From a virus, in IMG/VR virus record IMGVR_UViG_3300029310_000398, positions 32,001 to 96,000 of that record: 64,000 bases of DNA, one strand, 5' to 3'. The notes beneath the pieces are model-generated. The model searched no databases, was not told the origin of the DNA, and saw only the letters and a program-made list of their open reading frames with translations. The translations under genes and the position numbers were made by a program. The stretch's first letter is position 1, and the number at the start of each line of letters is the position of its first letter. Of the stretch, positions 5,568 to 49,729 are shown one piece after another.

Positions 5568-5644
5568 TTTCCGAAATCCCTTTCTTACGAGGGATAACCA
5601 TGTTATTTTGGTGTCTTATACACCGGCCAATATGCACGCAGTTT

Positions 5645-12432: not shown

Positions 12433-13082
12433 TATGCATCACCTCCAATACGAGACCGCGAGGGTGCGATACGGCGTCCGCGATAGAACAGACGGGTATT
12501 CGCTTCACGACCAGTCACGGAGCCAATGACCAAGGCCATTTCCTCAGGAGTAGCCATTCCATTTGCCATGTTGCAGGATGCAAACGCAACCGCCATCATC
12601 TTCTCCACAGGAACGTCGATAACCGCCGCAACTGCCTTTGCACGGGACTGGGGCATCTCCTTATAGGGGTATGTGGAGAACAAATACTGAGCAAGGCCCT
12701 GCACGCCTGCAAGCTGCTCCAGATAATCCAGCGTGACTCCCTCCTTGTTCAGATAATCCGCAATGAGGGGATATCCTTCGCTGAAATACCATGAGTGAGC
12801 GCCACGAATGTTGTTGCAGAGCATCGTAACATCGGACAGGGAAATTCCAGTTGCCTCCGCAGCAGAGGTGACAGATGAATCTTTGTTGGTGGCAAAGTAA
12901 CTGATGACAGCACGTACCTGCTCCTCATCCAGAACAGGACGGGGATATCGCCTTGCCTTCTCGTTGGGAAAGGGAATTTTCTGCAGGTGCAGATACACCT
13001 GCTGGCGAGAGATGTTGAGATTTTCGGCAATCTCCTGAACAGAGTAGCCGTTCCACCTCATAAGACCTACATAGGTCGCCAT
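12432..13082 (-). CDS. helix-turn-helix DNA-binding protein (216 aa)
   Basis: Begins MATYVGLMRWNGYSVQEIAENLNISRQQVYLHLQKI (sigma-70 region-4/LuxR-like HTH). The 305-aa track ORF extends upstream into low-quality sequence that overlaps the YdjM-like gene. Confidence 0.65.
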   Translation of the reverse strand: MATYVGLMRWNGYSVQEIAENLNISRQQVYLHLQKIPFPNEKARRYPRPVLDEEQVRAVISYFATNKDSSVTSAAEATGISLSDVTMLCNNIRGAHSWYFSEGYPLIADYLNKEGVTLDYLEQLAGVQGLAQYLFSTYPYKEMPQSRAKAVAAVIDVPVEKMMAVAFASCNMANGMATPEEMALVIGSVTGREANTRLFYRGRRIAPSRSRIGGDA

Positions 13083-13131
13083 GCGCTCGCCCCACTGCAC
13101 GTTTTCTGACTTACGTGTATCATTTGTTGAC

Positions 13132-13680
13132 TCACACAAATCTAATCGCCTCCTTGAAAAAATCGCCGGACTCGTAGACAAAACTGACAGTACAGAGAAT
13201 GGCAACACACGCCAAAATGAACGAGAAAGTATGTCCAGATGCACCATCGGTCTTGATGCCGAAAATCCAGAAGCGGTGGGAAATCGGCCAAAGAAGAGGA
13301 ACGCCGGCTTTGTTGAAAAGGTCGAGCAAGATATGAGTTGCTCCACCAATTACAAACGCGAGGATATAGGGCAGCCATTCAATGCCCAGAAACAGCCTCA
13401 GGGCTGCGTACAAGGCCGCCCAAATGAAAGGAGCATGAGTGATACCCCTATGCCCAAAGAGGGCGTTTACGGCAGCGGAGACGGGTTTATTCTTACGCCC
13501 CGCCTTGCTGCACGGAAGGTCGATGTCAGGCGCGAGAGAACCTGCCATGGACAGACCAACCACTCCGAGGGCCGGAAGCAATCCCTCCGGTGCCGGAAGC
13601 TCGAACAGTCCGTTGATTTGTGCCTGCACAAGCAGCAGGCCAGCCGTGTAACCGGCAAAAGTATGGGTTCGCCCGTCCAT
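13132..13680 (-). CDS. YdjM/DUF457-family membrane-bound metal-dependent hydrolase
   Basis: H..AG.......G.L.PD.D ... HRG.THA ... H..LD motifs and several TM helices. GGAGGTG RBS. Confidence 0.75.
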   Translation of the reverse strand: MDGRTHTFAGYTAGLLLVQAQINGLFELPAPEGLLPALGVVGLSMAGSLAPDIDLPCSKAGRKNKPVSAAVNALFGHRGITHAPFIWAALYAALRLFLGIEWLPYILAFVIGGATHILLDLFNKAGVPLLWPISHRFWIFGIKTDGASGHTFSFILACVAILCTVSFVYESGDFFKEAIRFV

Positions 13681-30800: not shown

Positions 30801-33800
30801 GTGAACTCAACATCAATGCTGCCGCTGGCATCCTTTGCCTTGAAGGTCTTCTCAACTGTAATCGCATCACCATTTGCATCGACCACAGGCTTACCGGTTG
30901 CCTTATCCATCAGCGTTCCGGAAACCTTATATGTATGACCGTCAATCAGGCCAGTGAAGGAAACAGTATCCAGAATAGTGACCTTCTTTTCAGGTTCAAG
31001 CATTTTGCTGCCATCAGCCTTATTGGAAGCTGTGGTCTTAACAGTGGGTTTCGCTACCGTTACAGTCTGCCCTTCATCGTCAAGGTCTTTGTGGGATGCA
31101 ACCGCAACAGACTGCTGCTCGTAGAACAGTTCCTCGAAAACTACGATGTCCTTACCCTGCATACCCGTTGCATCGAAAGTAAACTCCATGTCGATGCTGC
31201 CGTATGCCTTCTTTGCGGTGAAGGATTTCTCAACGACAATAGGCATTCCGTTCAGCAGAACAGGCTCACCAGAAGTCTGATAAACCAGTGTCCCACGCAG
31301 CTTATAGTCATGCTTTGCTGACAGGTGTTCATACTTAACAGTATCGCGGATTACGACGTTTCCGGCTGCATCAATGAATTTTCCGCCGCCCTCGCCGTTC
31401 TCTGCGGTTGTATCAGACAGTTCAGGCATATAGAACGTTGCAGACTGGTCAACATCATTGATGTCTTCATGCTTGGCGATGATATTTCCATCATAGAAAA
31501 CAGTCTCAAACGCCACGACCGTCTTCCCAAACAGCGCTGAGGAGTCAAACGTAAAGTAGACATCAACAGAACCGTCGGAAGATGTGGGTACAAAAATCGT
31601 CTTGCCAGTGATTTCACCGTTTCCGCCAACCAGCACACGGCCAGTAGCCTTATCCATCAGGCGGCCTTCAGCAACATAGGTATGGCCGGGGATGAGATTA
31701 TGGTAGTTCACGGTATCGACAAGAACAGTAGCCAAGGAAGAGACGAAGAACTGGTTCTTGTCAGGGCTTGCGTTCATCGTCGTACCAATGCTGGGCTCGG
31801 TGACAATCACGGTCTGCGCTTCATCACGGAGGTCAGTGTGCTTTGCACAAGGCTCTGTATCATCTTCATTGAAGAATAGTTCCTCAAAGACCACAACACT
31901 CTTGCCTGCGAGCTGAGAGGCATTCAAAGTGAATGTCATATCCACGGAGCCAAAAGTCCGCTTCGGTGTAAACTTGATAGATACAACCGTGTTGGGCAGT
32001 TCTTCACCAGTTTCACCATTCATCAGTCGTCCCACCAGCGTATACTCGTGGTCAGGTGTCACATGGGAATAGGTAACGGTATCAGTGATGGAAACCTTCT
32101 TGGCTGCATCGACCAAATTGTTGCCGCCATCAGTGTTCTCAGCGCTCGTTGAGATGCTGGGCGTATTGATTTTCACGGTCTGGTTATCATCCTCAAAGTC
32201 CTTATGCTCGGCGATAATCGTACCGTTGAAAGCCAATTCCTCAAACACGACCAAGGACTGACCATAGAGCTGCGAAGCATCGAAGGTAAACTCGACTTTG
32301 ACTTTTCCGTTCACACTGCGGGCTGTAAAGGTCGTGCTGCCTGTTACGGGAGTTCCATTAGAATTCAGCACAGGAGCGCCAGTCTGCTTATTCATCAGCG
32401 TACCGGACACGGTATATTCATGTCCCTTACTCAGACCTGAATACGTCACGGTATCAATCAGTTTCACAGAACTCTTGGGGTCGAAGAACTTGGAATTGCC
32501 CTCTGCGTTCTTTGCGCTGGTCTTGATTTCCGGAGTATTAAAGGTCAAAGACTGCTTCAGGTCGTTAATGTCAGTGTGTTTGCCTGCAGGAATCTCCTCG
32601 TTTTTATTGAAGTACAGATACTCAAACACCACGAGGGTCTTCCCCGCCATATTGCTGGCATCAAAGGTAAACTCTACATTCACAGTCCCAGCAACACGCT
32701 CAGGTGTGAACGTGGTCTTGCCGGTAATCTCATTACCCTTCGCATCGAGCAGAGCCTTGCCGGTATCCTTGTCCATCAGCTTACCGATGATGGTGTACTC
32801 ATGGTCGGGAGTCAGATGGCGGTAATTCACGGTATCCACGATATGAGTCCCCTTAGCGGGGTCAATCAGGTTGGTATTGCCATCATCGTTCAGGGCCTTA
32901 GTGCTCAACTCAGGAGCGAAGAAAATGGCTTCCTGCTTCTCGTCCGTAAGGTCTTTGTGCTCGGCGATAATGGTGTTGTGATAGTACAGAGACTCAAAGG
33001 CGATAACGCTCTGGCCGTACAGAATAGATGCATTCAGCGTGAAGGTCACGTCAACGCTGCCATCCTTACTGGTCGGAACGAACTCAGTCTCGCCAGCCAC
33101 CAATTTACCGTTGCCGTCACGGATGACATCGCCGGTATCCTTGGAAACGAGGTTGCCCATCACTTTATACGTGTGACCGGGCACGAGGTCGGTATAGGTC
33201 ACGGTATCCGTGATAGTGATTTCGTTCAGGGGCTCAAAGTAGTTGTTCAGAGAGATGCTTTCGTTGATGGTCGTATGAATCGAAGGGGTATTCACAGCGA
33301 CAGTCTGGCCTTCATCATTGATGTCCTTATGGACAGCGCAAGGAGTCGTGTCAGAAGCGCGGAAATAAAGTTCCTCGTAGACGACCAGAGAATCACCGTC
33401 AAGCCCAGAAGCATCAAAGGTAAATATCATCTCGGTGCTGCCCTTAGAGGCGGTAGGCGTAAACGTGTTCGTCACGGTTACGGTACGCCCGCCAGAAACC
33501 ACAGGCTCACCGGTGCGCTTATTCATCACCGTACCAGTGATGGTGTACTCCTGACCGATGGTAAGGTGCTCGTATGCAATCGTATCCTTGATGACAACAT
33601 TCTTTGCAGGGTCAACGGACTTTCCAGTACCCTCACCGTCAATAGCGGTAGTGCCGATTTCGGGGTTATATACCTTCACGGTCTGGTTGGCATCTGCATC
33701 ATCTTCGTGAACCGTCAGCACCGTACCACGGTAGGACAGCTTCTCAAAGATAACCAGCGTATGCCCATACAACTCGGAAGCATCAAAGATGAACTCGACA

Positions 33801-36800
33801 TCTACTGTACCGGTCTTTGCCGTAGGCGTAAACGTCGTTGTGCCAGTAATGTCATTGCCGGCAGTATCTTTCAGAAACTCGCCCGTAGTTTTATCAAAGA
33901 CCTTGCCAGTCAGCAGATAGGTATGTCCCTCAACTACCTTCTCATAAGAGACAGTATCCTTGATTTTTACGCTGTACTGCGCCTCAAGGAACTTCGTTCC
34001 GTCGGCAGCATTCACTGCGTTGGTGGTAATCTCAGGAGCCTCGACCGTCACGGTCTGGTCAGCATCGTCAATGTCCTCATGCGTCGCAACAGGCACTTCT
34101 GCGCTGATAGCAACATGGTAGAGTTTCTCGAAAGCAACGAGCTGGACGCCGGCAATCTCAGTGGCGTCGAAGGTAAAGACCACATCCACCGTACCTGAAG
34201 TGGTGGACGGCGTAAAGGTTGTCTCGCCAACAATGAAATTACCATTGTCATCCTTTGCGGGCTGCTGTGTGTCCTTATCCATCATCTGCCCGCTCAGTAC
34301 ATATTTATGGCCGGGTGTCAGGTGCTTATAGGATACGGTATCAACGACAGAAACGCCAACAGAGGGGTCAACTACCTTCACGTTGCCATCGGGGTTATTT
34401 GCAGAGGTCTTGATTTCAGGGGCGTAGAAAGCTACGGTCTGGTCGGCATCCGCAATGTCCTTATGGCTTGCCACCTCGACACCATCACGATGCAGCGTAT
34501 CGAAAACAACAACAGCATCGCCGGCAATCAGAGAAGCATCAAAGGTAAAGGTCAGCTCCGTGGAACCATTGAAGTTGTCACCTGCAACAAATGTGTTTGT
34601 TGCAGTAATGCGCTTGCCGCTGCCATCCAGCAAAGGTTCACCTGTAGACTTCAGCACAAGATATCCATTCACGGTGTAGGTCTTGCCGGGGATTACATCC
34701 GTGCAGGATACTGTATCCTTGATAGTCACAGATGTCAGGGGCTCCATAGTCTTCTCCCCAGCAGCTCCCTTTGCCACGGTCTTGATTTCCGGTGTCACAG
34801 GACTATCCTTTGCCGTAACCACGATGACTTTCTTATCACCTTCCATCGTAGTGTTCTCTGCGTCAACATTGAACTCGATGGGAGTGGAATCCAGCTTGTA
34901 GCCCTTGGGCGCCGTTACCTCGACCAGCGTATAGCCTCGACCAAACGGCAGCTCCTCAGGAGTAATCAGCTTACCTTCGGCATCGGTCTTAAATGTAGAG
35001 ACAGTTGAAAGGCCATTCTTGAGAGAAACCAGATTTCCGTCGGGGTCGTAGATTTGGAACTCCGCACCACTGTAAGGAATCAGGGTGTTATCCATCGCAT
35101 CGAGCTTGACAATGCGAACAGAAGCATAGTAAGGACGGTCGTTCAAAACATAGAAGTATGTCTTACCGTTCTCGGAAATAGTGACCTCGAAACCATGGAG
35201 CATATCAGCGCTCTCAAAGTCCTTCGTCTGGTCAATGATGTATGTACCGTAAGGCAGAGCCTTGGTGGTAGCATACCCGTCCTCTCCAACAACGATATGG
35301 TCTCGGTCGGTGGTCTTCGCGTTGGCGTAACTGCCAGCAGCCTTCAGGTAGACGTCGAACTCGGCTCCAACTTCGGGAGTCACCTTTCCGGTCGGGAGAG
35401 CTTCCTCAAGGCCGGTAGCTCCCACATCGGAGTGCTTGAAAATCTTGATGTAGCCCTTGATGACTCGCTCGGTAACGCCCAAATCGGGAGCCGCATTGAT
35501 TTCGATAACGTAGTTCTTCGCCTCGGCACCGACGTGATACACACTGTCGTCCAGCAGATAGCCAACGGAAGGGACGATTTCCTTGATGGTCCAATTATCA
35601 CCACAGATGTAAACGTCCGTAGTGAACTTGCCATTGGCATCAGTGGTGTACTGCTTCACCAGCTCATCACCGTCATACAAACCGTAAACGGCACCTTTCA
35701 GCGTGGCATTACCCTGTGCTGTAGTCGTCTCATTATCACGCTTTGTGACGGTCACAGACCACTTCTTCAGCACGTTGTGGATAGATGCGGTCGTGGTCTT
35801 ATCCAGCTTTACGTCGATGCCATCCTTGACAGCGGGAATGACGTAGCGGGCGGCGGTATCAACTTCTTCCAAAGAGTAGTTATAACCGACCAGTACGTTC
35901 TCAAAGGTCGCCACGCCAGCAGCATTGGTCACGGCGGTCATATCAACGGCCTGTCCCTGTGCGGAAGTTCCCGTCAGACGGAACTTGATGCCCTCAACGA
36001 TACCATCTTCAGAGGTCTTGGTGACGCTTACTGTACCACGGGCCAGCTTATTATACACGTTGGCATTTGTGGTTTTATTCAGAGTGACCACGATACCGGA
36101 AACGACATCGGGCACAATGTATTTCTCAGCAGTGCCGACCTCCTGAATGGTATAGTTCTCACCAATCAGGACGTCAGAGAAGGTCGCAATACCCTTGGCG
36201 TTTGTAGTGGCGGTCATGTCCACTGTGTCGCCGTTACCAGCCGTGCCGGTCAAGCGGAACTTGATGCCGGACACCAAACCGTCTTCAGCAGTCTTGGTGA
36301 CTGTGACAGTACCACGAGCCAGCTTGTTGTAGACGGCGGCATCAGTAGTCTTACCCACAGTAATGGTGATACCATTCTGTGCTGCAGGAACCACATAGCG
36401 GGCAGCCGTGCCAACCTCAGTCAGCACATAGCTGTTGCCAACCAGCACATCCTTAAACTCGGCAATACCCTGTGCATTGGTGGTCGCATCCAGAGAAACT
36501 TTCGCACCGGAGGTTGATGTGCCTTCCAGATGGAACTTCACACCGGAAACCAAACCATCCTCGGAGGTCTTGGTGACACGGAGATTACCACGAGCAAGGT
36601 CGTTACGGAACGACAGCTTGGTCGTATCGTTGACCTTTACAGTCACGCCAGCCTGAACCGCAGGAACCACATAGCGAGCCGGAGTGTTGGCTTCCTGAAC
36701 CGTATACTTCGAACCGATAGGCACGTTGGAGAAGGTCGCAACACCCTTGGCATCCGTCTTAGCTGTCATGCTAACGGTCGTTCCCGCATCGGAAGTGCCG

Positions 36801-39247
36801 GTCAGAGTGAATGTGAGGTTACTCACAACACTATCTTCGGAGGTCTTCGTCACCTGAACAGCTCCAACCTTGAGCTTATTCTGGATAGACACCGAAGTCT
36901 TATTGTTGATGTTTACGGTAACATTAACAGGGTTGACCACCTGATAGTATGCCGGTGTATTGACCTCGGACACAGTATAGCTTCCGATAAGAACATTGGA
37001 GAAGGTTGCAATACCTGAGGCGTTGGTTGTCGCGTACAGGTCAACGGCAGTACCATCAACGGAAGTACCCTGCAGGCGGAAACGCACGTTGGCGATTTTA
37101 CCATCTTCGGAAGCCTTTGTTACCTGCACGGAGCCGCGTGCCAGCTTGTTGCTGACAGTTGCCTGTGTGGTGTTGTTATACTTTACAGTGACGTTCTGTG
37201 CGGACACAGGAGCATACTGTTTACCAGTATTTACCTCGGTCAGCGTATATGTACCGATAAGCACATTTGAGAACGTAGCTACACCGCTGGCATTGGTGGT
37301 AGCTGTCAGATTTACAGCCTGACCGGAAGTGGATGTGCCCTTCAGATTAAACTGAACTCCGCTTACTTTTCCATCTTCGGAGGTCTTTGTGACAGTCACG
37401 TTGCCGCGAGCCAATTTATTTTCGAATGTTTTGCTTACAGACGTATTAGGCGTCGAAAGCGCGAACGTCTGGCTGACAGGGGCTACATATCTTCCGGGCG
37501 TATTTACCTCGGAAAGAACATAGTTGGAACCCAAGGGGACATTGGAGAACGTAGCCTTGCCGTTCGCATCTGTGGTCGCAGACAGATTTACAGCATCTCC
37601 CGCGTAAGATGTTCCCGTCAGTGTAAAAGTGAACCCTTGCAGAACTCCATCTTCCGATGTCTTCGTTACCTGCACGGTACACCGAGACACTTTGTTCTGG
37701 AAGGAGACACTCGCCGTGCCTCCAATCGTAACTGTCGCAGTCTGAACCCGATTCACAGCGTAGTATCCTAACGGCGAAGATTCTGTAATCGTGTAAGTTC
37801 CGGGCTGCAGGTCTGTAATGCTGATTTTGCCGGATGCATTTGTCTTAAAGAGCCGGTTATATCCGTTCGGCCCAGTTACAGTAAAGCTGACGTTAGAAAT
37901 GTTTTTCCCATTTTCAGACGTCTTTGTGATGTCCAAATTACCGGTTGTTTGCGTCACCTTCGCCCGCACATAACAAGTAACGGGGTCAGGCCAACCGTTC
38001 AAAGCAACACAATGCTGCTTGCTTCCTCCCGCAACGAGAAGGTAAGCATTGATGCTGTCGGGGTCAATCACGTTACCATAAGACACATATGAAGCATATC
38101 CATTCAGCAAACTCTTTGCCGCTTCTGATGTTGCTGTTATTGTCAGATTGTATCCAACCTTACTCGTCGACAAACCAGCCAACCCAAATGTGAAATTGTC
38201 AAAATTCGGCAGAACCCTGTTTGAATCATACTTAGTTGCTGTCCACACTGAACCATTCCACGCAAGTTCAATATCTTTTCTGAAATCTGTGGGACGGTAG
38301 ACAGCAAAACTCGGAATCTCTGCCTGCTGGTTAATCTTCTCCCAGATATAATCATGTGCTGCCTTGATAGGTTCAGCAACCTCCGGGTCATAAGCATGAC
38401 CGGGACCCACAAACAGGTCGCTCAGGTCGCTGTAGCCGCCAACGATTTCCCAGATAACCTCCTGCGTAGCACACCACGCATAGGTGCCGTTGCCAGCATA
38501 CCAGAGCAACGTCGAGTCATCTGCGCCACCCCAGCCATAGGCAAGCGCAAGGCGAACTCTATCATCCCCCCAATAGCTGCTGGCATCGACGGAGGTGCCA
38601 GAGCCGGGTGCGCCCTTGTGAGGCTCAATACAGTAAGCTGGCTGTCCATTGAAGAATTTCTCAACAGCACTGGAATAGGGGGCAAACTCGGCCATCCACT
38701 TCCTGTTATAACCCATATCGAGGCCGGTCGTAATAGTTCCCGATGCGCGAGCGGGAGCCCTCCTCGGACCAGAAGAGTTTTGCGGCGAGCCATACAAAGG
38801 CGTAACGCTCACGGGAGTATCTTCACCGGCATAGGGGTCCGAAAGACCTTCTTCATCATCAAAACTCTCACCATCAGGGTTAGATATTTCCAATGAGGAT
38901 TCCGAGTCTGGAGAACTATTGTCCTTCACCTCATCGGGAGACTTACTATCATCCGCTGTACTGTCGCTGCCATCTTGAGAGGATTCCTCGCCACTTCCGA
39001 CAGCATCTTCCGTGTTTCCTTCGCCTTTTTCGTCAGGCACTCCGATAGATACTGTATCTTCTGCCGATGCACCATCACCCCCTTCCACCATACCGACATC
39101 AGCAATTATCTCATTGCCGATGTCGTCCACACCAGTAATCTCCTCCCCCGCAGCAAATGCAGACGTAGGGAGCGTACCGGTCATCATCACAAGCACCAGC
39201 AGCATCGCAACGATACTGCGAAGTTTCTTGAAACGACTAATCTTCAC
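27881..39247 (-). CDS. giant sortase-anchored adhesin (about 3788 aa), paralog of 20469-26099
   Basis: Same architecture as gene 1: signal peptide (M)KISRFKKLRSIVAMLLVLVMMTGTLPTSAFA, AYCIEP / CATQEVIW thioester motifs, about a dozen Cna-B-like repeats and 18 repeats ending (V/A)FE...H.D..D..Q. C-terminal SPKTGD + hydrophobic helix + KRKKNK. I prefer the GTG start at 39247 (GAGGAG 9 nt upstream); the track ATG is at 39307. Confidence 0.95.
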   Translation of the reverse strand: MKISRFKKLRSIVAMLLVLVMMTGTLPTSAFAAGEEITGVDDIGNEIIADVGMVEGGDGASAEDTVSIGVPDEKGEGNTEDAVGSGEESSQDGSDSTADDSKSPDEVKDNSSPDSESSLEISNPDGESFDDEEGLSDPYAGEDTPVSVTPLYGSPQNSSGPRRAPARASGTITTGLDMGYNRKWMAEFAPYSSAVEKFFNGQPAYCIEPHKGAPGSGTSVDASSYWGDDRVRLALAYGWGGADDSTLLWYAGNGTYAWCATQEVIWEIVGGYSDLSDLFVGPGHAYDPEVAEPIKAAHDYIWEKINQQAEIPSFAVYRPTDFRKDIELAWNGSVWTATKYDSNRVLPNFDNFTFGLAGLSTSKVGYNLTITATSEAAKSLLNGYASYVSYGNVIDPDSINAYLLVAGGSKQHCVALNGWPDPVTCYVRAKVTQTTGNLDITKTSENGKNISNVSFTVTGPNGYNRLFKTNASGKISITDLQPGTYTITESSPLGYYAVNRVQTATVTIGGTASVSFQNKVSRCTVQVTKTSEDGVLQGFTFTLTGTSYAGDAVNLSATTDANGKATFSNVPLGSNYVLSEVNTPGRYVAPVSQTFALSTPNTSVSKTFENKLARGNVTVTKTSEDGKVSGVQFNLKGTSTSGQAVNLTATTNASGVATFSNVLIGTYTLTEVNTGKQYAPVSAQNVTVKYNNTTQATVSNKLARGSVQVTKASEDGKIANVRFRLQGTSVDGTAVDLYATTNASGIATFSNVLIGSYTVSEVNTPAYYQVVNPVNVTVNINNKTSVSIQNKLKVGAVQVTKTSEDSVVSNLTFTLTGTSDAGTTVSMTAKTDAKGVATFSNVPIGSKYTVQEANTPARYVVPAVQAGVTVKVNDTTKLSFRNDLARGNLRVTKTSEDGLVSGVKFHLEGTSTSGAKVSLDATTNAQGIAEFKDVLVGNSYVLTEVGTAARYVVPAAQNGITITVGKTTDAAVYNKLARGTVTVTKTAEDGLVSGIKFRLTGTAGNGDTVDMTATTNAKGIATFSDVLIGENYTIQEVGTAEKYIVPDVVSGIVVTLNKTTNANVYNKLARGTVSVTKTSEDGIVEGIKFRLTGTSAQGQAVDMTAVTNAAGVATFENVLVGYNYSLEEVDTAARYVIPAVKDGIDVKLDKTTTASIHNVLKKWSVTVTKRDNETTTAQGNATLKGAVYGLYDGDELVKQYTTDANGKFTTDVYICGDNWTIKEIVPSVGYLLDDSVYHVGAEAKNYVIEINAAPDLGVTERVIKGYIKIFKHSDVGATGLEEALPTGKVTPEVGAEFDVYLKAAGSYANAKTTDRDHIVVGEDGYATTKALPYGTYIIDQTKDFESADMLHGFEVTISENGKTYFYVLNDRPYYASVRIVKLDAMDNTLIPYSGAEFQIYDPDGNLVSLKNGLSTVSTFKTDAEGKLITPEELPFGRGYTLVEVTAPKGYKLDSTPIEFNVDAENTTMEGDKKVIVVTAKDSPVTPEIKTVAKGAAGEKTMEPLTSVTIKDTVSCTDVIPGKTYTVNGYLVLKSTGEPLLDGSGKRITATNTFVAGDNFNGSTELTFTFDASLIAGDAVVVFDTLHRDGVEVASHKDIADADQTVAFYAPEIKTSANNPDGNVKVVDPSVGVSVVDTVSYKHLTPGHKYVLSGQMMDKDTQQPAKDDNGNFIVGETTFTPSTTSGTVDVVFTFDATEIAGVQLVAFEKLYHVAISAEVPVATHEDIDDADQTVTVEAPEITTNAVNAADGTKFLEAQYSVKIKDTVSYEKVVEGHTYLLTGKVFDKTTGEFLKDTAGNDITGTTTFTPTAKTGTVDVEFIFDASELYGHTLVIFEKLSYRGTVLTVHEDDADANQTVKVYNPEIGTTAIDGEGTGKSVDPAKNVVIKDTIAYEHLTIGQEYTITGTVMNKRTGEPVVSGGRTVTVTNTFTPTASKGSTEMIFTFDASGLDGDSLVVYEELYFRASDTTPCAVHKDINDEGQTVAVNTPSIHTTINESISLNNYFEPLNEITITDTVTYTDLVPGHTYKVMGNLVSKDTGDVIRDGNGKLVAGETEFVPTSKDGSVDVTFTLNASILYGQSVIAFESLYYHNTIIAEHKDLTDEKQEAIFFAPELSTKALNDDGNTNLIDPAKGTHIVDTVNYRHLTPDHEYTIIGKLMDKDTGKALLDAKGNEITGKTTFTPERVAGTVNVEFTFDASNMAGKTLVVFEYLYFNKNEEIPAGKHTDINDLKQSLTFNTPEIKTSAKNAEGNSKFFDPKSSVKLIDTVTYSGLSKGHEYTVSGTLMNKQTGAPVLNSNGTPVTGSTTFTARSVNGKVKVEFTFDASQLYGQSLVVFEELAFNGTIIAEHKDFEDDNQTVKINTPSISTSAENTDGGNNLVDAAKKVSITDTVTYSHVTPDHEYTLVGRLMNGETGEELPNTVVSIKFTPKRTFGSVDMTFTLNASQLAGKSVVVFEELFFNEDDTEPCAKHTDLRDEAQTVIVTEPSIGTTMNASPDKNQFFVSSLATVLVDTVNYHNLIPGHTYVAEGRLMDKATGRVLVGGNGEITGKTIFVPTSSDGSVDVYFTFDSSALFGKTVVAFETVFYDGNIIAKHEDINDVDQSATFYMPELSDTTAENGEGGGKFIDAAGNVVIRDTVKYEHLSAKHDYKLRGTLVYQTSGEPVLLNGMPIVVEKSFTAKKAYGSIDMEFTFDATGMQGKDIVVFEELFYEQQSVAVASHKDLDDEGQTVTVAKPTVKTTASNKADGSKMLEPEKKVTILDTVSFTGLIDGHTYKVSGTLMDKATGKPVVDANGDAITVEKTFKAKDASGSIDVEFTFAATGLFGKDLVVFEKIFYNDTEIASHENINDKGQTVQVHNPNITGTTAVGTLDGGKFIDPAANVKITDTVAYEHLSTGHEYTLHGTLMNKETGEPIKNGGAEVVFEQTFTPSATSGSVDMQFTFNASFMKGKDIVVFEEIYFNADDTEPVAVHKDIDDGSQTVSVTNPEVQTVAVNKGDNGKVFEPDTTVTLKDTVFYNNLIVGHKYTVTGTLMDEETGKAIKDIDGNIVTASVEFVPEAACGTVDVEFTFAATELYGKTIVAFEKLLFNGTVIASHEDINDEEQTTTVHNPEIMRTIAVSAVDEGKLIDASETSIINDTVVYRHLSTGHTYTLRSSLVDKTTGEPVLNNGVPVVAEMQFAPESTAGSVVAAIEFDASSVKGRDIVVFEELFFNADDKNPVAAHKDIEDADQTVTVVKSSIKTSAENAADSTKVFEPTADVVLKDTVTYEGLIVGHTYKVVGTLMDKATGKPVENTEGKTITAEATFTPEAESGSVVVEFKFDARTFFGRTLVVFENLYYGNSVVASHKDINDEDQSVDVKAPIIVGTTATNKADGGKLFDPAEKVVLVDTVKYDHLSAAHKYTLVGKLMDKASGEAVNDKDGNPVTASTSFTPDALSGSVGVVFEFDGKALAGKDVVVFEYLFYNEGDETALTTHEDLEDAAQTVTFTNPSVKTSASNASTGKKTFSPYEKAELVDTVTYTGLIPGHEYTLVGTLMEKVKTGDKFEGKAVMDKDNKPLTATATFTPEKADSTTTVSFIFSARSVAGKTLVVYEELFYDNMSIAAHADITDEEQTVTVDRIHYRSGPTMSTTATFANGAKSSGYASRLVIVDTVSYSGLTVGQTYTLVGKLMDSQTGVALRDTNDREVTSTLTFTPKTSDGSVDMKFSFNAGNIKGAKIVVFEEMYVGKDVAGTLYLSHTDINDAGQTVTVTVSPKTGDSGIGIYIAIGAIALGAVVVVVVVSTIKRKKNK
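28000..34800 (-). repeat. tandem coding repeats (18 VaFE/ester-bond modules), approximate bounds
   Basis: Eighteen occurrences of the HxDxxDxxQ-type motif at a period of about 125-130 aa. Confidence 0.7.
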
Positions 39248-39354
39248 AATTTCCAGCTCCTCTCGCAAAGTATTTCTTTCGTCCACGTGCCCGTATTTTG
39301 CCCTCAAAGTCGCTACAGGACAACGGATACGACGGACGAGTGTCTACATTTTCT

Positions 39355-39467: not shown

Positions 39468-39494
39468 AAAGTGTGCAATCATTGCACACTTTCT
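39468..39494. repeat. palindrome copy 2 (GAAAGTGTGCAATCATTGCACACTTTC), downstream of parB
   Basis: Perfect inverted repeat with A/T flanks. It could act as a bidirectional terminator. An extra half-site CATTGCACA lies 7 nt upstream. Confidence 0.85.
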
Positions 39495-40797: not shown

Positions 40798-41570
40798 TTC
40801 GAAATGACCTCCTTTGCAACGTCCATATAGAGCTCACCGACACGACTTCCCTTCTTGGCTACACAGGTGCGATGCTCGGTCGGTGCGTCGGATACTTCCT
40901 TGAGGTAGGGAATCATTGTCTCCAGTACCACGCCATCGCCCAGCGCTTCCGTCAGGTCATCCCGCGTAGTCTTCACGTTGCTGCGCCGCGTATCCGCACG
41001 GTTGATGAGGATACCGTCGATGGTCAGCTTGGGGTTCAGAGACTTCTGAATGCTGTCGATGGTACTCAGCAGGTCTGCCAAACCGTTGACAGCATATTCC
41101 TCAGCCTCCACAGGAATGATGATACTGTCCGCAGCAGTCAGAGCATTGGATGTCAGCAGGTCGAGGCTGCCCTTGCAGTCGATAATGCAGACGTCATAGT
41201 CACACTGGCTGCCAACGGCAGAGAGCGCTTTTGCCAGCACACGGTTTCCGTCAGCTACATTCGCCAGAATGGTCGGCGCAGAGGAGAGTGCAGGAGACGC
41301 AGGGATGAAGTCCACCTGCTCCTTTTCGTTGTGCCGAATAAACGAACTCAGGTTGATGGGCATATTGTATGCCGTGAAGTAAATGAGTTCATTGGTCGTA
41401 GTGGGAGTATTGTCTTGCACGAAGCCCAGCGTGTCGGAAAGATTCCGCTGTGGGTCGATGTCTGCCAGCAGCACTTTCTGCCCAAGCCGAGCCAGTGCCG
41501 CGCCCAAGTTCACAGCGGTGGTGGTCTTTCCTACTCCGCCTTTTTGGTTACATACTGCTACGATTCTCAT
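40782..41570 (-). CDS. parA: ParA/Soj-family partition ATPase
   Basis: Deviant Walker A MRIVAVCNQKGGVGKTTTAVNLG, 262 aa. Confidence 0.95.
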   Translation of the reverse strand: MRIVAVCNQKGGVGKTTTAVNLGAALARLGQKVLLADIDPQRNLSDTLGFVQDNTPTTTNELIYFTAYNMPINLSSFIRHNEKEQVDFIPASPALSSAPTILANVADGNRVLAKALSAVGSQCDYDVCIIDCKGSLDLLTSNALTAADSIIIPVEAEEYAVNGLADLLSTIDSIQKSLNPKLTIDGILINRADTRRSNVKTTRDDLTEALGDGVVLETMIPYLKEVSDAPTEHRTCVAKKGSRVGELYMDVAKEVISKWQIR

Positions 41571-41606
41571 ATCGTTTTCATCCTTTCAGGTGTTTTTCTG
41601 TCTCCG

Positions 41607-41633
41607 AAAAGTGTGCAATGATTGCACACTTTT
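41607..41633. repeat. palindrome copy 3 (AAAAGTGTGCAATGATTGCACACTTTT), in the parA leader
   Basis: Perfect 27-nt palindrome, followed by further T residues. Confidence 0.85.
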
Positions 41634-41732
41634 TTTTGCTTGATTTAGGAATGTGTTGACTCCTCCTACCCCTCAAGGAGTGGGCTTGCGGCGGGAAAAG
41701 TTAAATTATTTTGTCATTCAGATAATCCGTAA

Positions 41733-41956
41733 GGTATACAACCCTGTTATTTCAGGGCCCTATATACCTGTAAGAACCCAAGATTTTGGTATACAACCCT
41801 GTTATTTCAGGGCCTTATATACCCGACACAGGCATATTCAGTTCCCCAAAGCGCTGGCGTCACCTCTCACGTAATTACCAGCTAACAGAGTCTTCCTGCT
41901 TCCATGATGACCGTGCATCTCCACAGGCGTAAATTCCGGTTATACCGTCCGTACTC
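41733..41956 (-). repeat. structured element, copy B (full length with a duplicated GAAAUAAC hairpin), upstream of parA
   Basis: Core GAGTACGGACGGTATAACCGGAATTTACGCCTGTGGAGATGCACGGTCATCATGGAAGCAGGAAGAC, a GCTGG...ACGTGAGAGG...CCAGC hairpin, and 2x GGTATA..CCCTGAAATAACAGGG..TATACC. Confidence 0.75.
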
Positions 41957-41971
41957 AGTTTTGGTTTCTTG

Positions 41972-42000
41972 GAAAAGTGTGCAATGATTGCACACTTTTC
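41972..42000. repeat. palindrome copy 4 (GAAAAGTGTGCAATGATTGCACACTTTTC), abutting the stop of the vWA gene
   Basis: Perfect 29-nt palindrome. Confidence 0.85.
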
Positions 42001-44925
42001 TTACTCAGCGTCCTTCTTACGACGGCCAATCACAGGAGCCACCAGCAGCGCAGCGATGGAGACACCGGCCACAGCGAACACATACAGCCACCCGAAGGAA
42101 GTGTCACCCGTCTGAGGCGCATGAGGAACAGTCTCAGGGGAAGGCGTGCTGGGAGTGGTGTCATAATAGTAGTGACCGCCGCTGGGCTTATTTTCAGGCT
42201 TGGTATCAGGCTTATCTTCCGGCTTGTCCTCAGGCTTATCTTCGGGCTTGGTGATAGGCTTATCATCCTCATTCTTACCATCATCGCCGGGATTTTCAGG
42301 TTCCGCAGGGCGGTTGTAGCGGAGAATGATTTTATTCTCGCCACCCTCGGCAATCACGATAACCTCATAGTTGGCGGAAGTGAAGGTGTACGTACCATCC
42401 TTGAACGTGGTGTTCTTGGTAATGCCAGCAGCCCCGATGATGTCGCCAATATCGGCCTCAAGGATTTCCTCCGTCTGACCGTCCAGCTTACCATCGGTGT
42501 AATACTCATGGACAACCGTGAACTTTGTAGGGGCCTCGGTGTCTGTAGTACGGTCGTAGCGCAGAACCATGACGTTCTCAGCACCATCGACAACGACCAT
42601 CTTTGCGGGAGTGGCAGAGGTAAAAGAGTATGCTTTCTTGTTGTAGGCAGTCATCTTAAAAATGCTCTCGGAGTCAACTTCAGTATTCTCTTCAGCGGAC
42701 TGAGCCACGACAGCGACACCATCCATCTCACCATTGGTGTAATACTCATGCCGGATGGTATAAGGAACCATTGCGGGAACAACATCAACCGTGCGGTCAT
42801 AGCGAACAACGATAGTATTATCGCCATCAACAGTCAGGGTAACGGAAGTGGGCGTGCAGGAGGTGAAGCCGTATGTCTCTTCGTTGTAGGTGGTGCAGCG
42901 GGTCACGCTGTCAGCGTCCAGCACAGTACCCTCGGCGCCGGCAGACTCAACTACTGTCTCGCCATCGAGTTCGTTGTTGGTATAATACTCATGCTTGATG
43001 GTGTAGTTCACCTCAACAGGAGTGACCTCAACAGTGCGGTCATAGCGCAGGACGATAGTATTTTCCTGACCATAATCCAGCGTCAGCTCAGAGGGAGTGC
43101 AGCCGGTATACTCATACTCGCCATCCTGATAGTTCAGAACCTTGACAATGGCATCCTCGGATACCACATATCCGGAAGCGTTTTCCTCTTCGATAGTGGT
43201 AGCGCCATCAAATACATCATTTGTGTAGTATTCGTGCCGAATAGTGTAAACAATGTTGATGTTCACAGGAGGCATAGGAGGCGTGGGAGGAGTCTCGACA
43301 ACACGGTCGTAACGCAGCGTCATGGTTGCGCCCTCAGACACAATCATGACAGAGGGGTCAGCAGAAGTATACCCGTAGGTTTCATCGTTGTATTCGGTAA
43401 TCTTATCCAACGTGAAACTGTCAATCTCAGTACCTTCCTCGGCAGTCTGTGTAACAGTGATGGAGCCGTCCAGTTCACCATTGGTGTAATACTCATGCTT
43501 GATGTTATAGGAAACCTCGACAGGCTCAACGTAGGGCAGATAGCCGCGCACAGTGGGAATATCGAAAGCAATGGTCTTCTCCACGCCGCCGAAGGTATAG
43601 GTCAACACAGCAGAGGGGTTGACATCATAGGCCTTTCCTTCTACGAAACCTTCCTTGTCAGTCTGGAGAGTAATGGGATAGGTTACGGTATAGGAACGAG
43701 TTCCCTTCTCCTCATCTACAGTAGGAGTCACTGCGGTGACGTTCCACGTCAAACCATCGGAAGTCTTTGCGATACCGAAAGCCTCCAACTCAGACACGGA
43801 ACCAAGCTGGATGTAGCTGCCCATGGGTGCCACGACCGTACCGGCGTTGGTGGTCGTCACAATGGAATTGCCGATACTCTTGAACAGGTCGCTCAGTTCG
43901 TTCATGTCCTGCGTAGACAGGTAGTGGTCTGCGTCGGTCGCAACAGCCTTCATGGTGTCCTCGGCATTCTGCTTGCTGGTCTGCTCATTCTTGCCATAGC
44001 CATCCAGAAACACGGTGAAAATCTCAAAACCGGAATCCTTGGCAGCCTGCGCCTGAACGATAGCGGGCTGGCCGTTATCTGCATAGACCTTGTTAGTCAG
44101 AGTTGTGCGCTCATCATGCTCGCAGGTGACATCCAGAGAAGCATAGTGGTTGTCCTGCGTGTACTCGAAGTCGGAACCACTGCCAACGATGGAATTACGG
44201 TCGAAGCTGGTAACGAGGTTGCTGGCAGTGCCGCTGGACTTATTCCAGTTGTGGCGCCGGCCAGACTCGGTGCAGCCAGACCAATCAGCCGTACCGGTCA
44301 GACGATAGCTGTACGTGGGCATACCATCAGAGAACAGGACGATGACCTTCTGTGCAGAGCTCTTATCGGCAGCAAATACCTGCTGGGCAGCATAAATACC
44401 GGCCTGCACATTGGTGCCACCATCATAGATATCACTTACAGCAGTCGTCGCCGTGGTAACAGCCTCAGAGACCTTAGCCGTGTCGTTGGTCAGCCAACAG
44501 TGACTCCAGTATTTCGTACCAAAACTCACAACGGAGACCTGATTGCCGGCAGCAATGCCGTCTTTATCGAGGATGCCGGAGACAAACTCGTTCACAGCAG
44601 CTCTGGTATTAGTGCGCCGGTCGCCATCCATACTATTGGAGCGGTCGATGCACAGCACGATATGAACGGGCTTCACGGGCTCCAGTTCGACCAAATCGGA
44701 AGTAGTGACAGTCATCGTCACATCAAAGTCATTGCCAGTGGTGTGCGCTGCAGTCTCATGGACAGTAACCATACCGTCCGTGGACTTCATCAGGATACCC
44801 TGCTTCACAACCTCACCATCACGCACAGTGCTGGCGGCGTATGCCTTAATACCCACGCAGCTCAGGAGAACGCAGAGGAGTAAAAAGGCAGAGAGAATAC
44901 GCTTAAAGTTCGTAATCGTCTTCAT
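42001..44925 (-). CDS. sortase-anchored surface protein with an N-terminal vWA domain and six ~85-aa repeats
   Basis: Signal peptide. MIDAS DRSNSMDG (DxSxS). Repeats (V.Y.I.HEYYTNG..DG...V......G). P/K/E-rich stalk (PEDKPEDKPEDKPDTKPENKP). C-terminal APQTGD + helix + RRKKD. Confidence 0.9.
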   Translation of the reverse strand: MKTITNFKRILSAFLLLCVLLSCVGIKAYAASTVRDGEVVKQGILMKSTDGMVTVHETAAHTTGNDFDVTMTVTTSDLVELEPVKPVHIVLCIDRSNSMDGDRRTNTRAAVNEFVSGILDKDGIAAGNQVSVVSFGTKYWSHCWLTNDTAKVSEAVTTATTAVSDIYDGGTNVQAGIYAAQQVFAADKSSAQKVIVLFSDGMPTYSYRLTGTADWSGCTESGRRHNWNKSSGTASNLVTSFDRNSIVGSGSDFEYTQDNHYASLDVTCEHDERTTLTNKVYADNGQPAIVQAQAAKDSGFEIFTVFLDGYGKNEQTSKQNAEDTMKAVATDADHYLSTQDMNELSDLFKSIGNSIVTTTNAGTVVAPMGSYIQLGSVSELEAFGIAKTSDGLTWNVTAVTPTVDEEKGTRSYTVTYPITLQTDKEGFVEGKAYDVNPSAVLTYTFGGVEKTIAFDIPTVRGYLPYVEPVEVSYNIKHEYYTNGELDGSITVTQTAEEGTEIDSFTLDKITEYNDETYGYTSADPSVMIVSEGATMTLRYDRVVETPPTPPMPPVNINIVYTIRHEYYTNDVFDGATTIEEENASGYVVSEDAIVKVLNYQDGEYEYTGCTPSELTLDYGQENTIVLRYDRTVEVTPVEVNYTIKHEYYTNNELDGETVVESAGAEGTVLDADSVTRCTTYNEETYGFTSCTPTSVTLTVDGDNTIVVRYDRTVDVVPAMVPYTIRHEYYTNGEMDGVAVVAQSAEENTEVDSESIFKMTAYNKKAYSFTSATPAKMVVVDGAENVMVLRYDRTTDTEAPTKFTVVHEYYTDGKLDGQTEEILEADIGDIIGAAGITKNTTFKDGTYTFTSANYEVIVIAEGGENKIILRYNRPAEPENPGDDGKNEDDKPITKPEDKPEDKPEDKPDTKPENKPSGGHYYYDTTPSTPSPETVPHAPQTGDTSFGWLYVFAVAGVSIAALLVAPVIGRRKKDAE

Positions 44926-44966
44926 AATTCTTTTGTCCTTTCAAGTTTGAAAAAGTATGCCACCCT

Positions 44967-44991
44967 AAAGTGTGCAATGATTGCACACTTT
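44967..44991. repeat. palindrome copy 5 (AAAGTGTGCAATGATTGCACACTTT), in the leader of the vWA gene
   Basis: Perfect inverted repeat 42 nt upstream of the start codon. Confidence 0.85.
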
Positions 44992-45091
44992 TCAATTCGC
45001 CTCTCTTAGAGACTACCCCTTTTGCGTCTCGATAGGCGGTTCATAAAAATTTGCTCCCGCCTTATGGAAATGGTACAGTCACCGCTTCTTC

Positions 45092-45199
45092 AATCCGAAG
45101 CTATCTCTCACATAGAGTTCGGAATACACGGCAATTTCCTGCTTCAATGACGAACATCCGTCTCCACAGGCGTAAATTCCGGTCATACCATCCGTACTT
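45092..45199 (-). repeat. structured element, copy C (core + GUGAGAGA hairpin)
   Basis: AAGTACGGATGGTATGACCGGAATTTACGCCTGTGGAGACGGATGTTCGTCATTGAAGCAGGAAATT plus TCCGAA..ATGTGAGAGA..TTCGGA. The stems covary relative to copies A2 and B. Confidence 0.7.
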
Positions 45200-45213
45200 A
45201 AAATCGCTCTCTG

Positions 45214-45242
45214 GAAAAGTGTGCAATCATTGCACACTTTTC
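45214..45242. repeat. palindrome copy 6 (GAAAAGTGTGCAATCATTGCACACTTTTC)
   Basis: Perfect 29-nt palindrome. Confidence 0.85.
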
Positions 45243-45244
45243 GT

Positions 45245-45418
45245 TTACCCCCAGAACCCAACCTGACTGTAGTAGAAGAAGTCTCTCATAAGCTGGTTTC
45301 GGTTTGCGGGAGTGTCGGGCATCGTGTAACCGTCGCGGTAGTTACAAAGGAACAGCTCACCGTCCTCGACGCCGCACATGATGCCGACATGGTCATCTCT
45401 TGCGAAGATTGTTACCAA
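45245..45418 (-). CDS. possible small ORF (57 aa, TTG start)
   Basis: AGGAGG 8 nt upstream of the TTG. Translation MVTIFARDDHVGIMCGVEDGELFLCNYRDGYTMPDTPANRNQLMRDFFYYSQVGFWG. Not in the track, and it is antisense to track ORF 45221-45421. Confidence 0.4.
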   Translation of the reverse strand: MVTIFARDDHVGIMCGVEDGELFLCNYRDGYTMPDTPANRNQLMRDFFYYSQVGFWG

Positions 45419-45442
45419 TAACGTGTCCTCCTTTCTTCTTGG

Positions 45443-45904
45443 TTAAGCGTTGCTGTAGGCGGTCTGCACCACCACAGGCTCCGCAGGAACTTCAGGCGCC
45501 ATATTGTTTTCGACCCATTTATCATGAGACTCCATGACAGGGCCTGTGATAGTCAACCCCTGCGGCCACATCGGGTACTTGCGGTCCTTGTCAGGAATAC
45601 CACGGACGATAAGCGCAGGATTCACAGCGAACTCCCAGCCCTCCTTATCCTTGCGTACCACATAGATAAAGCCGTATTTCTGCAGGGCGGTAATCCACGA
45701 GGTAACGCTGCGGAGTTTTCCGCCAGTCGCCTCACACAGCGCATCGCGCCGACAGTATACGATATTCTCGTCGTTCATTTGTCCGGCGAGGTACATCACA
45801 ATCGTCCATGCACCCTTGGACTGAAGCGTCAGTGCGACGATTTGCTCGATATAGTAGTTGTTGATGGAATATGCGGTCTTAGATTTATCACACATTTCGC
45901 TCAC
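45443..45904 (-). CDS. winged-helix DNA-binding protein (153 aa), possible replication/maintenance factor
   Basis: LRSVTSWITALQKYGFIYVVRKDKEGWEFAVNP has a wHTH recognition-helix plus wing pattern, paralogous to modules in the upstream gene. Confidence 0.65.
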   Translation of the reverse strand: MSEMCDKSKTAYSINNYYIEQIVALTLQSKGAWTIVMYLAGQMNDENIVYCRRDALCEATGGKLRSVTSWITALQKYGFIYVVRKDKEGWEFAVNPALIVRGIPDKDRKYPMWPQGLTITGPVMESHDKWVENNMAPEVPAEPVVVQTAYSNA

Positions 45905-49700: not shown

Positions 49701-49729
49701 GAAAAGTGTGCAATGATTGCACACTTTTC
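49701..49729. repeat. palindrome copy 7 (GAAAAGTGTGCAATGATTGCACACTTTTC), between the Rad52-like and primase genes
   Basis: Perfect 29-nt palindrome, and the only copy in the plus-strand operon. Confidence 0.85.

Follow-up and report, generated by a model that had tools for sequence, protein, structure and literature searches.

The guide RNA (reRNA) of IS607-family TnpB nucleases has the structured RNA RAGATH-18 as its core, and consists, in this order, of a 37-nucleotide (nt) 5′ flank, the motif itself with 73 nt, a 3′ flank of 64 nt and a guide of ~20 nt (Ren et al., 2024, PMC11061315). According to the same work, its target-adjacent motif (TAM) is AGGAG or GAGGG, and RAGATH-18 normally lies at the right end of IS607 elements. 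Here we describe an element that occurs four times on the minus strand of a 64,000-nt stretch of the virus record IMGVR_UViG_3300029310_000398 (positions 32,001 to 96,000 of that record; hereafter the window), and its relatives in other metagenome sequences. We consider it likely, with a probability of roughly three in four, that this element is a TnpB guide-RNA scaffold of the RAGATH-18 class which, together with repeat-spacer arrays at two of the four copies, feeds a CRISPR-like silencing between mobile elements. The candidate partner is a TnpB homologue of 352 amino acids (aa) encoded on closely related plasmids.

With the IS607 reRNA the element shares the kink-turn (k-turn) core CCUGUGGAGA...GNN-GAAGCAGGAA, a conserved 5′ flank of ~30–37 nt and a 3′ flank of ~65 nt with the targeting sequence variable at the 3′ side, a target flank that is 5′-sided and ends in G, an occurrence mainly in human-gut Firmicutes, and canonical homologues directly behind tnpB. 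It differs in having a 12–14-nt hairpin where RAGATH-18 has a long stem of ~45 nt with an E-loop, in the lack of an adjacent tnpB or tnpA in the window, in the dispersal of many copies over one plasmid, in the repeat-spacer array that takes the guide position instead of one fixed guide, in its (T)G flank motif as opposed to AGGAG or GAGGG, and in a candidate partner protein without the RuvC-I Asp and the zinc finger.

Three further groups of systems invite comparison. The Cas12f and V-U groups of Altae-Tran et al. (2023, PMC10691335) likewise have an effector of the TnpB family whose gene is followed by an array, have no adaptation genes nearby, are often plasmid-borne and in some cases have altered catalytic sites; the V-U groups listed there could include the present lineage. 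In contrast to these groups, the protein considered here is, at 352 aa, smaller than the described Cas12 effectors, each array has its own full scaffold as a ‘leader’, and several units lie among ordinary operons of one contig, with at least seven core matches on each of a 174-kb and a 190-kb contig. TldR proteins are, as the present protein probably is too, small TnpB derivatives with a damaged RuvC site on mobile elements, and their guide-directed DNA binding that blocks transcription is the mode we would expect here. The known fliC-, csrA- and oppF-associated TldR clades are described as using one fixed guide against a host promoter (bioRxiv 10.64898/2026.09.22.753285), whereas here arrays stand at many loci, vary from one related plasmid to another and have spacers with matches in other mobile elements; a single guide to the promoter of a nearby host gene was not found. 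Finally, plasmid-borne systems that interfere without cleaving (Cas12m, PMC10691335, and type IV CRISPR) and virus mini-arrays would share with this system guide RNAs against competing mobile elements, short arrays and the absence of adaptation genes; they differ from it in both effector family and RNA architecture, the effector here being TnpB-sized and a scaffold being present in every array. The papers searched for a TnpB-plus-array plasmid system offered general precedents only, and in them we found no description of this system.

Copies of the element and their fold

Four copies of the 37-nt core GTACGGAYGGTAYRACCGGAATTWACGCCTGYGGAGA lie in the window, all on the minus strand (5502–5538, 5776–5812, 41918–41954 and 45161–45197), with 0 occurrences expected by chance from shuffled sequence, and searches of the window with profiles built from homologues returned the same four copies and otherwise noise. 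All copies are intergenic, run in the direction of the neighbouring genes and have a start codon downstream. This agrees with a preliminary description of the DNA, which had listed four minus-strand copies, three bracketed by a palindrome and the fourth (A2) behind a tRNA-Ser gene, an arrangement that the positions confirm. The copies and their arrays are the following.

41824–41956, minus strand: scaffold of copy B, 131 nt counted from GTACGG at 41954; 5′ flank with a degenerate helix P1, mini RAGATH-18 k-turn module CCUGU-GGAGA-P3-GAAGCAGG, predicted anti-repeat CUCUGUU, P5 hairpin with GUGAGAG loop, and GGGGAACUGAAUAUGCCUGUG
41733–41823, minus strand: mini-array of copy B, with repeat 1 (41788–41823), a 19-nt spacer (41769–41787) and repeat 2 (41733–41768); repeat sequence GGTATATARGGCCCTGAAATAACAGGGTTGTATACC
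41713–41732, minus strand: TTACGGATTATCTGAATGAC, the sequence behind the last repeat of array B, at the position of a terminal guide
5681–5814, minus strand: scaffold of copy A2, 132 nt counted from GTACGG at 5812
5589–5680, minus strand: mini-array of copy A2, with repeat 1 (5645–5680), a 20-nt spacer (5625–5644) and a degenerate repeat 2 (~5589–5624)
5477–5540, minus strand: copy A1, 5′ flank and mini RAGATH-18 module only, without P5 hairpin and without repeats; the downstream gene is the open reading frame (ORF) 4995–5393 (MADYFKVVYS...)
45072–45199, minus strand: copy C, of single-guide-type architecture, with module 1 at 45136–45199, tail CUGUACC at 45072–45078 and no repeats; the VWA adhesin gene lies downstream

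Homologues of these copies came from two pattern scans of IMG/VR (75 stretches on large contigs of 30–190 kb, many of them multi-copy) and from a scan of metagenome contigs (at least 118 stretches from human gut, soil, groundwater and other samples); L numbers below denote the fetched loci. Two alignments were used, a diverse set of 30 homologues from which the interior of the variable stem had been removed and a plasmid-family set of 65 copies. Standard pairs fill 92.9% of the cells of the diverse set, compared with 27–45% in controls with slid partners; its covariation score of 0.357 was reached by none of 500 shuffles (0.132 ± 0.015), and seven of its pairs change on both sides. More than 100 plasmid-family copies keep 98% of the predicted pairs, again with compensatory changes.

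The three helices for which compensatory changes had been proposed from the window copies alone vary in the same manner among the homologues. In the outer stem CCUGY/RCAGG the closing Y-R pair is UG in 18, UA in 4, CG in 2 and GC in 1 of the 30 sequences. The inner hairpin has an invariant closing G-C and an A-U in 28/30, followed by two covarying pairs (UG 11, CG 6, GC 5, UA 4, then GC 9, UG 5, CG 4, AU 3), and in the hairpin with the GUGAGAG loop, taken over the 65 plasmid-family copies, pair 86/94 is CG in 25, UA in 19 and UG in 14 and pair 85/95 is AU in 55 and GC in 5. A fourth helix that had not been listed, P1 (GG-NNN/NNN-CC, 5–6 bp with a 3-nt loop), covaries strongly in homologues, as in GGUAG-GAA-CUAUC, GGUCG-GAG-CGACC and GGGCG-GAC-UGCCC, and is degenerate in the window copies, with A·A and C·A mismatches. 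P3 closes with GA../..UC, and its interior ranges from 12 to ~60 nt among homologues. The assignment to the minus strand likewise holds, as G·U pairs are frequent and a single sequence folds better on the minus strand (–52.5 kcal/mol, z = –1.8) than on the plus strand (–34.0 kcal/mol, z = –0.1). The element is, accordingly, a real structured RNA read on the minus strand, with compensatory changes. RNAalifold further predicts that CUCUGUU of the scaffold, directly behind the k-turn module, pairs with the AACAGGG that the first repeat carries in its 3′ half, and that UGAAUA..CC of the scaffold pairs with the 5′ arm of that repeat.

The copies without arrays, A1 and C, may be single-guide forms or cis-acting protein-binding sites, a cis-regulatory role being possible for both. 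In copy C, the proposed P4 strands UUGCCGU and GCGGUGA, a pairing read from the sequence, would enclose the P5 hairpin with its GUGAGAG loop.

Two kinds of DNA signal were considered for the conserved segment and rejected. A promoter for a dedicated, T7-like polymerase, suggested by the long conserved core upstream of genes, was dropped because the inner stem varies from 12 to 60 nt, the helices covary and some copies lie 10 nt behind a tRNA. As for a sigma-70 promoter or an intrinsic terminator, no promoter-like site was found, and a single palindrome, on the plus strand, passes the terminator rule.

Kinship with RAGATH-18 and TnpB guide scaffolds

Judged by its sequence, the element belongs to the wider RAGATH-18/TnpB kind of guide scaffold. 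Its core CCUGUGGAGA-hairpin-GAAGCAGGAA is the k-turn core of RAGATH-18 (RF03064), the Rfam consensus cCUguGGAG...GaUGAAgcAGgAA being the P2/k-turn of the window copies, all four of which read CCUGY-G-GA-GAYG / CRUC-GNN-GA-A-RCAGG. This k-turn fits the crystallised RAGATH-18 oligonucleotide GUCUAUGAAGGCUGGAGAC and Table 1 of PMC8191799, with C:G at –1b:–1n, tandem G·A/A·G, A:G at 3b:3n, G:U at 4b:4n and CCUG/CAGG closure. The variable Y-R pair of the outer stem occupies the 4b:4n position and is U·G in copies B and C, U-A in A2 and C-G in A1.

An Rfam scan of the whole window returned tRNA only. The model misses the window copies because their long stem is shortened: the hairpin above the k-turn has 12–14 nt, compared with 42–43 nt in the copies that Rfam recognises, and the long distal stem of RAGATH-18 with its internal loops (AGUAG/AAAA) is absent from the window copies. 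Kinship is therefore established through homologues, namely the divergent copy in L178, which scores 77.3 bits against RF03064 over a stretch that is exactly P2 plus P3, and the homologues that lie directly behind tnpB genes. The preliminary description had assigned the element to no known RNA family, understandably, since Rfam itself does not score the window copies; through the homologues the core turns out to be the k-turn of RAGATH-18.

The divergent array-less copies sit 3–18 nt behind canonical tnpB ORFs ending ..HDRDINAAINIL. These divergent copies thus follow tnpB as RAGATH-18 reRNAs do, and the window copies are therefore a miniaturised form of that scaffold, with 131–132 nt made up of a 31-nt 5′ flank, a 35-nt k-turn module and a 3′ flank of ~65 nt. 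At the place of the anti-repeat, the canonical copies without arrays show a simple hairpin that covaries (for example CCCGCGAC-UUCA-GUCGUGGG, CCCAUCGAGC-UUUA-GCUCGUGGG or CCGCUGAC-UUUA-GUCAGAGG), then UAGUUCAC, then the variable flank. Since this hairpin occupies the same place, the plasmid repeat has the look of a serially repeated 3′ strand, with tail, from the last helix of the omegaRNA. In the nearest canonical relative the guide RNA ends ..GGUGAGAGCAGUGUAUACAAUGUACC, which resembles the plasmid repeat and suggests that the repeat originated from an omegaRNA 3′ end. Such an origin agrees with the duplication of omegaRNA segments that Altae-Tran et al. (2023, PMC10691335) propose for the birth of type V arrays.

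Repeat-spacer arrays

The GGTATA..TATACC hairpins that had been noted, one or two to a full copy, are indeed present, and their identity had been missed: they are the 36-nt repeat units of CRISPR-like arrays whose spacers vary. Repeats of the plasmid family have the sequence GGTATACACCACCCAGAAATAACAGGGTTGTATACC or GGTGTATAAGGCCCTGAAATAACAGGGTTGTATACC, and an array contains between 1 and 7 of them. In 80 homologous arrays the first repeat begins at a fixed distance of 129–135 nt, counted along the scaffold, and the spacers come behind the tail ..UUGUAUACC. All fetched loci together hold 161 arrays with 493 repeats and 126 unique spacers, whose modal length is 30 nt (71/126 exactly 30 nt, 90/126 of 29–32 nt, with minor classes of 7–25 nt). 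The arrays thus combine direct repeats of constant length with unique spacers of near-constant length, as expected of CRISPR arrays, while the sharp boundary between scaffold and targeting sequence, with a motif 5′ of the target, is that of an omegaRNA or reRNA. The window has two arrays, each of two repeats and one short spacer (19 nt and 20 nt).

Arrays with the distal spacers cgtgaggcacgaaaa and ccatatgacg... in common differ on the side next to the scaffold (L009, L023, L042, L047, L049 and L196), and distal repeats are degenerate. This pattern is compatible with polar addition of spacers, or alternatively with recombination or deletion. In the related plasmid L019, 29 nt of the sequence that follows array B in the window are succeeded by one more repeat.

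As a separate observation, spacer lengths across L001–L195 are bimodal, mostly 29–32 nt with a minority of 14–20 nt found mainly at the distal, older end of the array. Both window spacers are of the short class, whose length is near that of a TnpB guide.

The repeat pattern was absent from the genomes, one each, of 185,579 species, apart from a single match in a Chlorobiota metagenome-assembled genome that is likely due to chance; the same scan gave neither a host taxon nor a host CRISPR locus. PADLOC found no cas gene and no defence gene among ten unannotated ORFs of the window.

Spacer matches to other mobile elements

The 101 unique spacers of at least 24 nt were compared with all fetched loci, allowing full-length matches with up to four mismatches. 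Nineteen of them match array-free loci, and no match adjoins a repeat. On the 5′ side, 17 of these 19 matches have G at position –1 and 12 of them have T at position –2, and the 3′ side carries no signal. TnpB and Cas12 have this arrangement, in which the flank is 5′-sided and the spacer has the sequence of the non-target strand. The spacers therefore match foreign elements beside a conserved 5′-(T)G motif, as CRISPR spacers would, and the array’s own DNA lacks this motif because the repeats end ..CC.

The target loci have no nucleotide similarity to the array loci and encode a tyrosine integrase, a xis-like gene product and a Dam methylase; L057 and L111 are the loci with xis/int targets. A search of phage records gave two spacers from two different arrays that each match 29/30 nt inside one small xis-like gene of MT835962.1. 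Two spacers, s1 and s20, visibly cover the ribosome-binding site and ATG of a target gene (e.g., the xis-like gene of L057), these being the only two such cases, and spacers s66–s68 are antisense to the target element’s own mini RAGATH-18 gene. Sequences behind the last repeat, taken as guides, matched outside arrays only a homologous downstream gene and, weakly, one further site (16/17).

Mini RAGATH-18 RNAs are also carried by the targeted integrative elements L082, L083, L086, L087, L099, L114, L125, L147, L186 and others. They often stand two in tandem, followed by a strong terminator-like hairpin (e.g., L083, 11235–11349), and no tnpB ORF ends within 150 nt upstream of them.

A possible self-match was noticed as well. 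In the sequence behind array B, TTACGGATTATCTGAAT (41716–41732, minus strand) matches 15/17 nt of TTGCGGATTATCTGAAC at 12747–12763 (minus strand), within the ORF of a helix-turn-helix (HTH) protein (12432–13349); the homologous site in L053 also matches. About 7e-4 such matches are expected by chance, and the 5′ flank is CTCA, not TG. This could be a self-directed regulatory guide or a coincidence.

A TnpB homologue as the candidate partner

In 14 fetched plasmid-family stretches, and also in L196, an ORF of ~352 aa (MATTFQAFKYRIYPTDEQ...) ends 50–60 nt upstream of one scaffold-array unit. Its product matches ISDra2 TnpB (E = 5e-51, residues 6–322), the Pfam families OrfB_IS605 and HTH_OrfB_IS605, the first 24 residues only of the zinc-ribbon domain, and the PADLOC models Cas12f and Cas12u4; it is 38–41% identical to the canonical TnpBs beside array-less copies. 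Its clade comprises one cluster at 98% identity with 147 members, one at 88% with 370 and one at 75% with 1, all from metagenome assemblies, and the 75% variant has the same palindrome-scaffold-array arrangement downstream. Aligned with full-domain relatives, all three clusters have GISLG in place of GIDLG in RuvC-I, an Asp-to-Ser replacement. The protein retains the RuvC-II Glu but lacks a zinc-finger segment of 28 residues. The homologue is thus probably nuclease-dead, the alternative being a rearranged active site.

The IMG/VR contig 3300045988_183830, 98–99% identical to the window over 13 kb, carries the modified tnpB (L004).

Three side observations concern this protein family. In L003 (~1168, plus strand) and L164 (~13955, minus strand) an array-less copy of the 5′ module precedes the start codon of the modified tnpB by ~40 nt, a position that would suit autoregulation by binding of the protein to its own mRNA leader. 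The nearest full-domain TnpB relative, of 384 aa and 51% identity (L197, 4001–5350; alignment A6), stands in a phage-like context with lysis genes and NrdD adjoining, and its guide RNA already has the short k-turn module and the GGUGAGAG motif, with a different 5′ flank. One ORF cluster of the array-bearing loci (alignment A4) matches the Pfam family RRXRR (PF14239) with E = 1e-49, a family that we take to be IscB-like RNA-guided nucleases.

Discussion

Let us consider how such a system might operate. The scaffold, transcribed and processed from the minus strand, would fold into the P1 hairpin at its 5′ end, the k-turn module with its stem of 12–14 nt, and the hairpin with the GUGAGAG loop, while its CUCUGUU segment would pair with AACAGGG of the next repeat. 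At copies B and A2 the position at which a TnpB guide would start is taken by the repeat-spacer array, so that the scaffold serves as the ‘leader’ of the array. The 352-aa TnpB homologue encoded elsewhere on this plasmid family would be the partner; the complex of protein, scaffold and spacer would bind spacer-matching DNA with a 5′-(T)G flank, and the bound protein, instead of cutting, would silence the genes of rival integrative elements.

Several results weigh against this proposal. The window itself encodes no TnpB homologue detectable by tblastn with TnpBs, so that the link to the protein rests on near-identical relatives, and neither of the window’s two spacers (19 and 20 nt) matches any fetched sequence. 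RAGATH-18 gives no match in the window at its gathering threshold (44.9 bits), and none at E ≤ 10 over 41400–45500 or in the 251 nt around copy B. Scans around the copies showed no promoter-like site beside any of them. The anti-repeat helix (CUCUGUU:AACAGGG) is paired in 96% of cells, but its variation is one-sided only, which is compatible with pairing and short of proof by covariation. In the protein, a RuvC-III-like remnant, KHDEALAQ, can be aligned with DRDENAA, in which case the Asp may be kept. Among the unique spacers, 25/126 are only 7–20 nt long. Lastly, no cas1- or cas2-like gene appears among the top 25 families listed as matches for 106 representatives of ORF clusters (ORFs of at least 150 aa) from the sampled 718 kb of array-bearing loci; the only Cas models matched there, again among the matches listed, were Cas12f and Cas12u4. 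No machinery that would account for the pattern of spacer differences therefore emerges from this sample.

A bolder version of the proposal, to which we give somewhat less than even odds, is that of an adaptive, CRISPR-like TnpB system, in which several dispersed mini-arrays per plasmid, each fused to a scaffold, would serve the 352-aa, probably nuclease-inactive TnpB, would gain 30-nt spacers on the side of the scaffold, with no cas1 or cas2 nearby, and would silence rivals including their guide-RNA genes. A system of that kind would stand, as a living intermediate, midway from the single-guide omegaRNA to tracrRNA plus CRISPR array.

Among the roles suggested in the preliminary description, a protein-binding RNA comes closest to our reading, and nothing points to an antitermination or riboregulatory leader or to a single-stranded DNA signal. 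The alternative that survives best, unlikely as we consider it, is nevertheless a leader RNA acting in cis without any guides, through antitermination at the flanking hairpins, mRNA stability or binding of a TnpB-like protein. The intergenic position of the copies upstream of start codons and in the direction of the genes, the palindromic hairpin that brackets them, the lack of a visible separate promoter, the absence of repeats from copies A1 and C, and the array-less copies ~40 nt before the modified tnpB in L003 and L164, which would suit autoregulation, could all be understood in this way. However, the scaffold is homologous to TnpB guide scaffolds and shows no similarity to any Rfam antitermination RNA, and a purely cis role leaves unexplained why spacers match foreign elements beside a flank motif.

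Slightly less probable again is that the copies are decayed right ends of IS607-type elements, that is, remnants of guide-RNA genes without function, beside which unrelated local duplications produced the repeats. RAGATH-18 does normally mark the IS607 right end (PMC11061315), no tnpB or tnpA lies beside any window copy, and P1 is degenerate in them. Decay would, on the other hand, hardly leave 98% of predicted pairs intact, with compensatory changes, in more than 100 plasmid-family copies, nor a fixed distance between scaffold and repeat in 80 arrays; the scaffold-proximal spacer differences, the flank motif at matches to other elements and the dedicated TnpB homologue conserved beside one unit are equally at odds with it.

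Orphan mini-arrays, unaccompanied by cas genes, are known on mobile elements. If the arrays here were of that kind and used host Cas proteins, the 130 nt before them would be an ordinary leader and the TnpB homologue an unrelated neighbour. This we regard as improbable, more so than decay. A 36-nt repeat with a 30-nt spacer is the geometry of several host CRISPR types, and no adaptation genes were found on the plasmid fragments among the matches listed; yet the repeat pattern is missing from the surveyed genomes of 185,579 species bar the one likely chance match, the supposed leader is a TnpB guide scaffold, the flank motif is 5′-sided as with TnpB and Cas12, and the repeat resembles the 3′ end of the guide RNA of a canonical relative. 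That the transferred strand carries a folded single-stranded DNA signal, for instance a single-strand promoter or origin, may be set aside as very improbable: the window is a conjugative element (coupling protein, CHAP/lysozyme protein, topoisomerase) and all copies share one strand, but frequent G·U pairs and the k-turn point to RNA, homologues stand behind tnpB in phage-like and chromosomal insertion-sequence contexts, and no link connects the copies with an origin of transfer.

CRISPR-Cas12 systems are thought to have arisen repeatedly from TnpB and its single-guide omegaRNA, and to our knowledge forms that show the transition from fixed guide to array are scarce. If the proposal of a TnpB guide scaffold fused to silencing arrays is correct, the transition would be directly testable here, because a full omegaRNA scaffold is still present on each array, the repeat is omegaRNA-like and the protein is TnpB-sized. 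Conjugative plasmids of gut Firmicutes would, moreover, each wield several guide loci against integrative elements, in a form of warfare among mobile elements that escapes annotation pipelines: Rfam registers nothing of it in the window, and 185,579 reference genomes lack the repeat but for one likely chance match. A programmable DNA-binding protein of 352 aa with natural multiplexed guides would also be of interest for building tools.

Plasmid setting and other features

The gene content of the window is that of a large conjugative element, with genes mostly on the minus strand up to ~52 kb, among them those for ParA, ParB, RepL-like proteins, a VWA/tip-pilin-like adhesin, a topoisomerase, a coupling protein and a CHAP/lysozyme protein. 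A distant search of the plasmid database PLSDB with copy B and its flanks gave no match. The features that adjoin the copies are these.

5547–5565, 39471–39489, 41611–41629, 41977–41995, 44970–44988, 45219–45237 and 49706–49724: the palindrome GTGTGCAATSATTGCACAC, perfectly conserved
5822–5909, minus strand: tRNA-Ser(UGA), its 3′ end 10 nt before the scaffold of copy A2

The palindrome, of 19 bp, thus occurs seven times in the window, with 0.02 occurrences expected. Its flanks are A-rich and T-rich; in related plasmids most scaffolds have it immediately upstream, and there as in the window it brackets the scaffold-array units. As candidates for its role we consider a processing or stability hairpin, a weak terminator and an operator; that the sequence is so well conserved would suit a protein-binding site or a processing hairpin better than an ordinary terminator.

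The junction of tRNA-Ser and scaffold recurs in many related loci, from which we infer that tRNA processing could set the 5′ end of the scaffold RNA. Other tRNA genes lie near the modified tnpB, upstream of which a cluster of tRNA-Glu, Thr, Thr and Gly is found in L072 (11035–11575) and in the same region of L008, L009, L015, L035, L051 and L139.

Two giant surface proteins are encoded on the minus strand of the window (27881–39307, 3808 aa, and 20469–26099, 1876 aa). They combine a thioester domain with as many as 18 TQ ester-bond domains and with SpaA-type domains, and are adhesins of a kind typical of Gram-positive conjugative elements.

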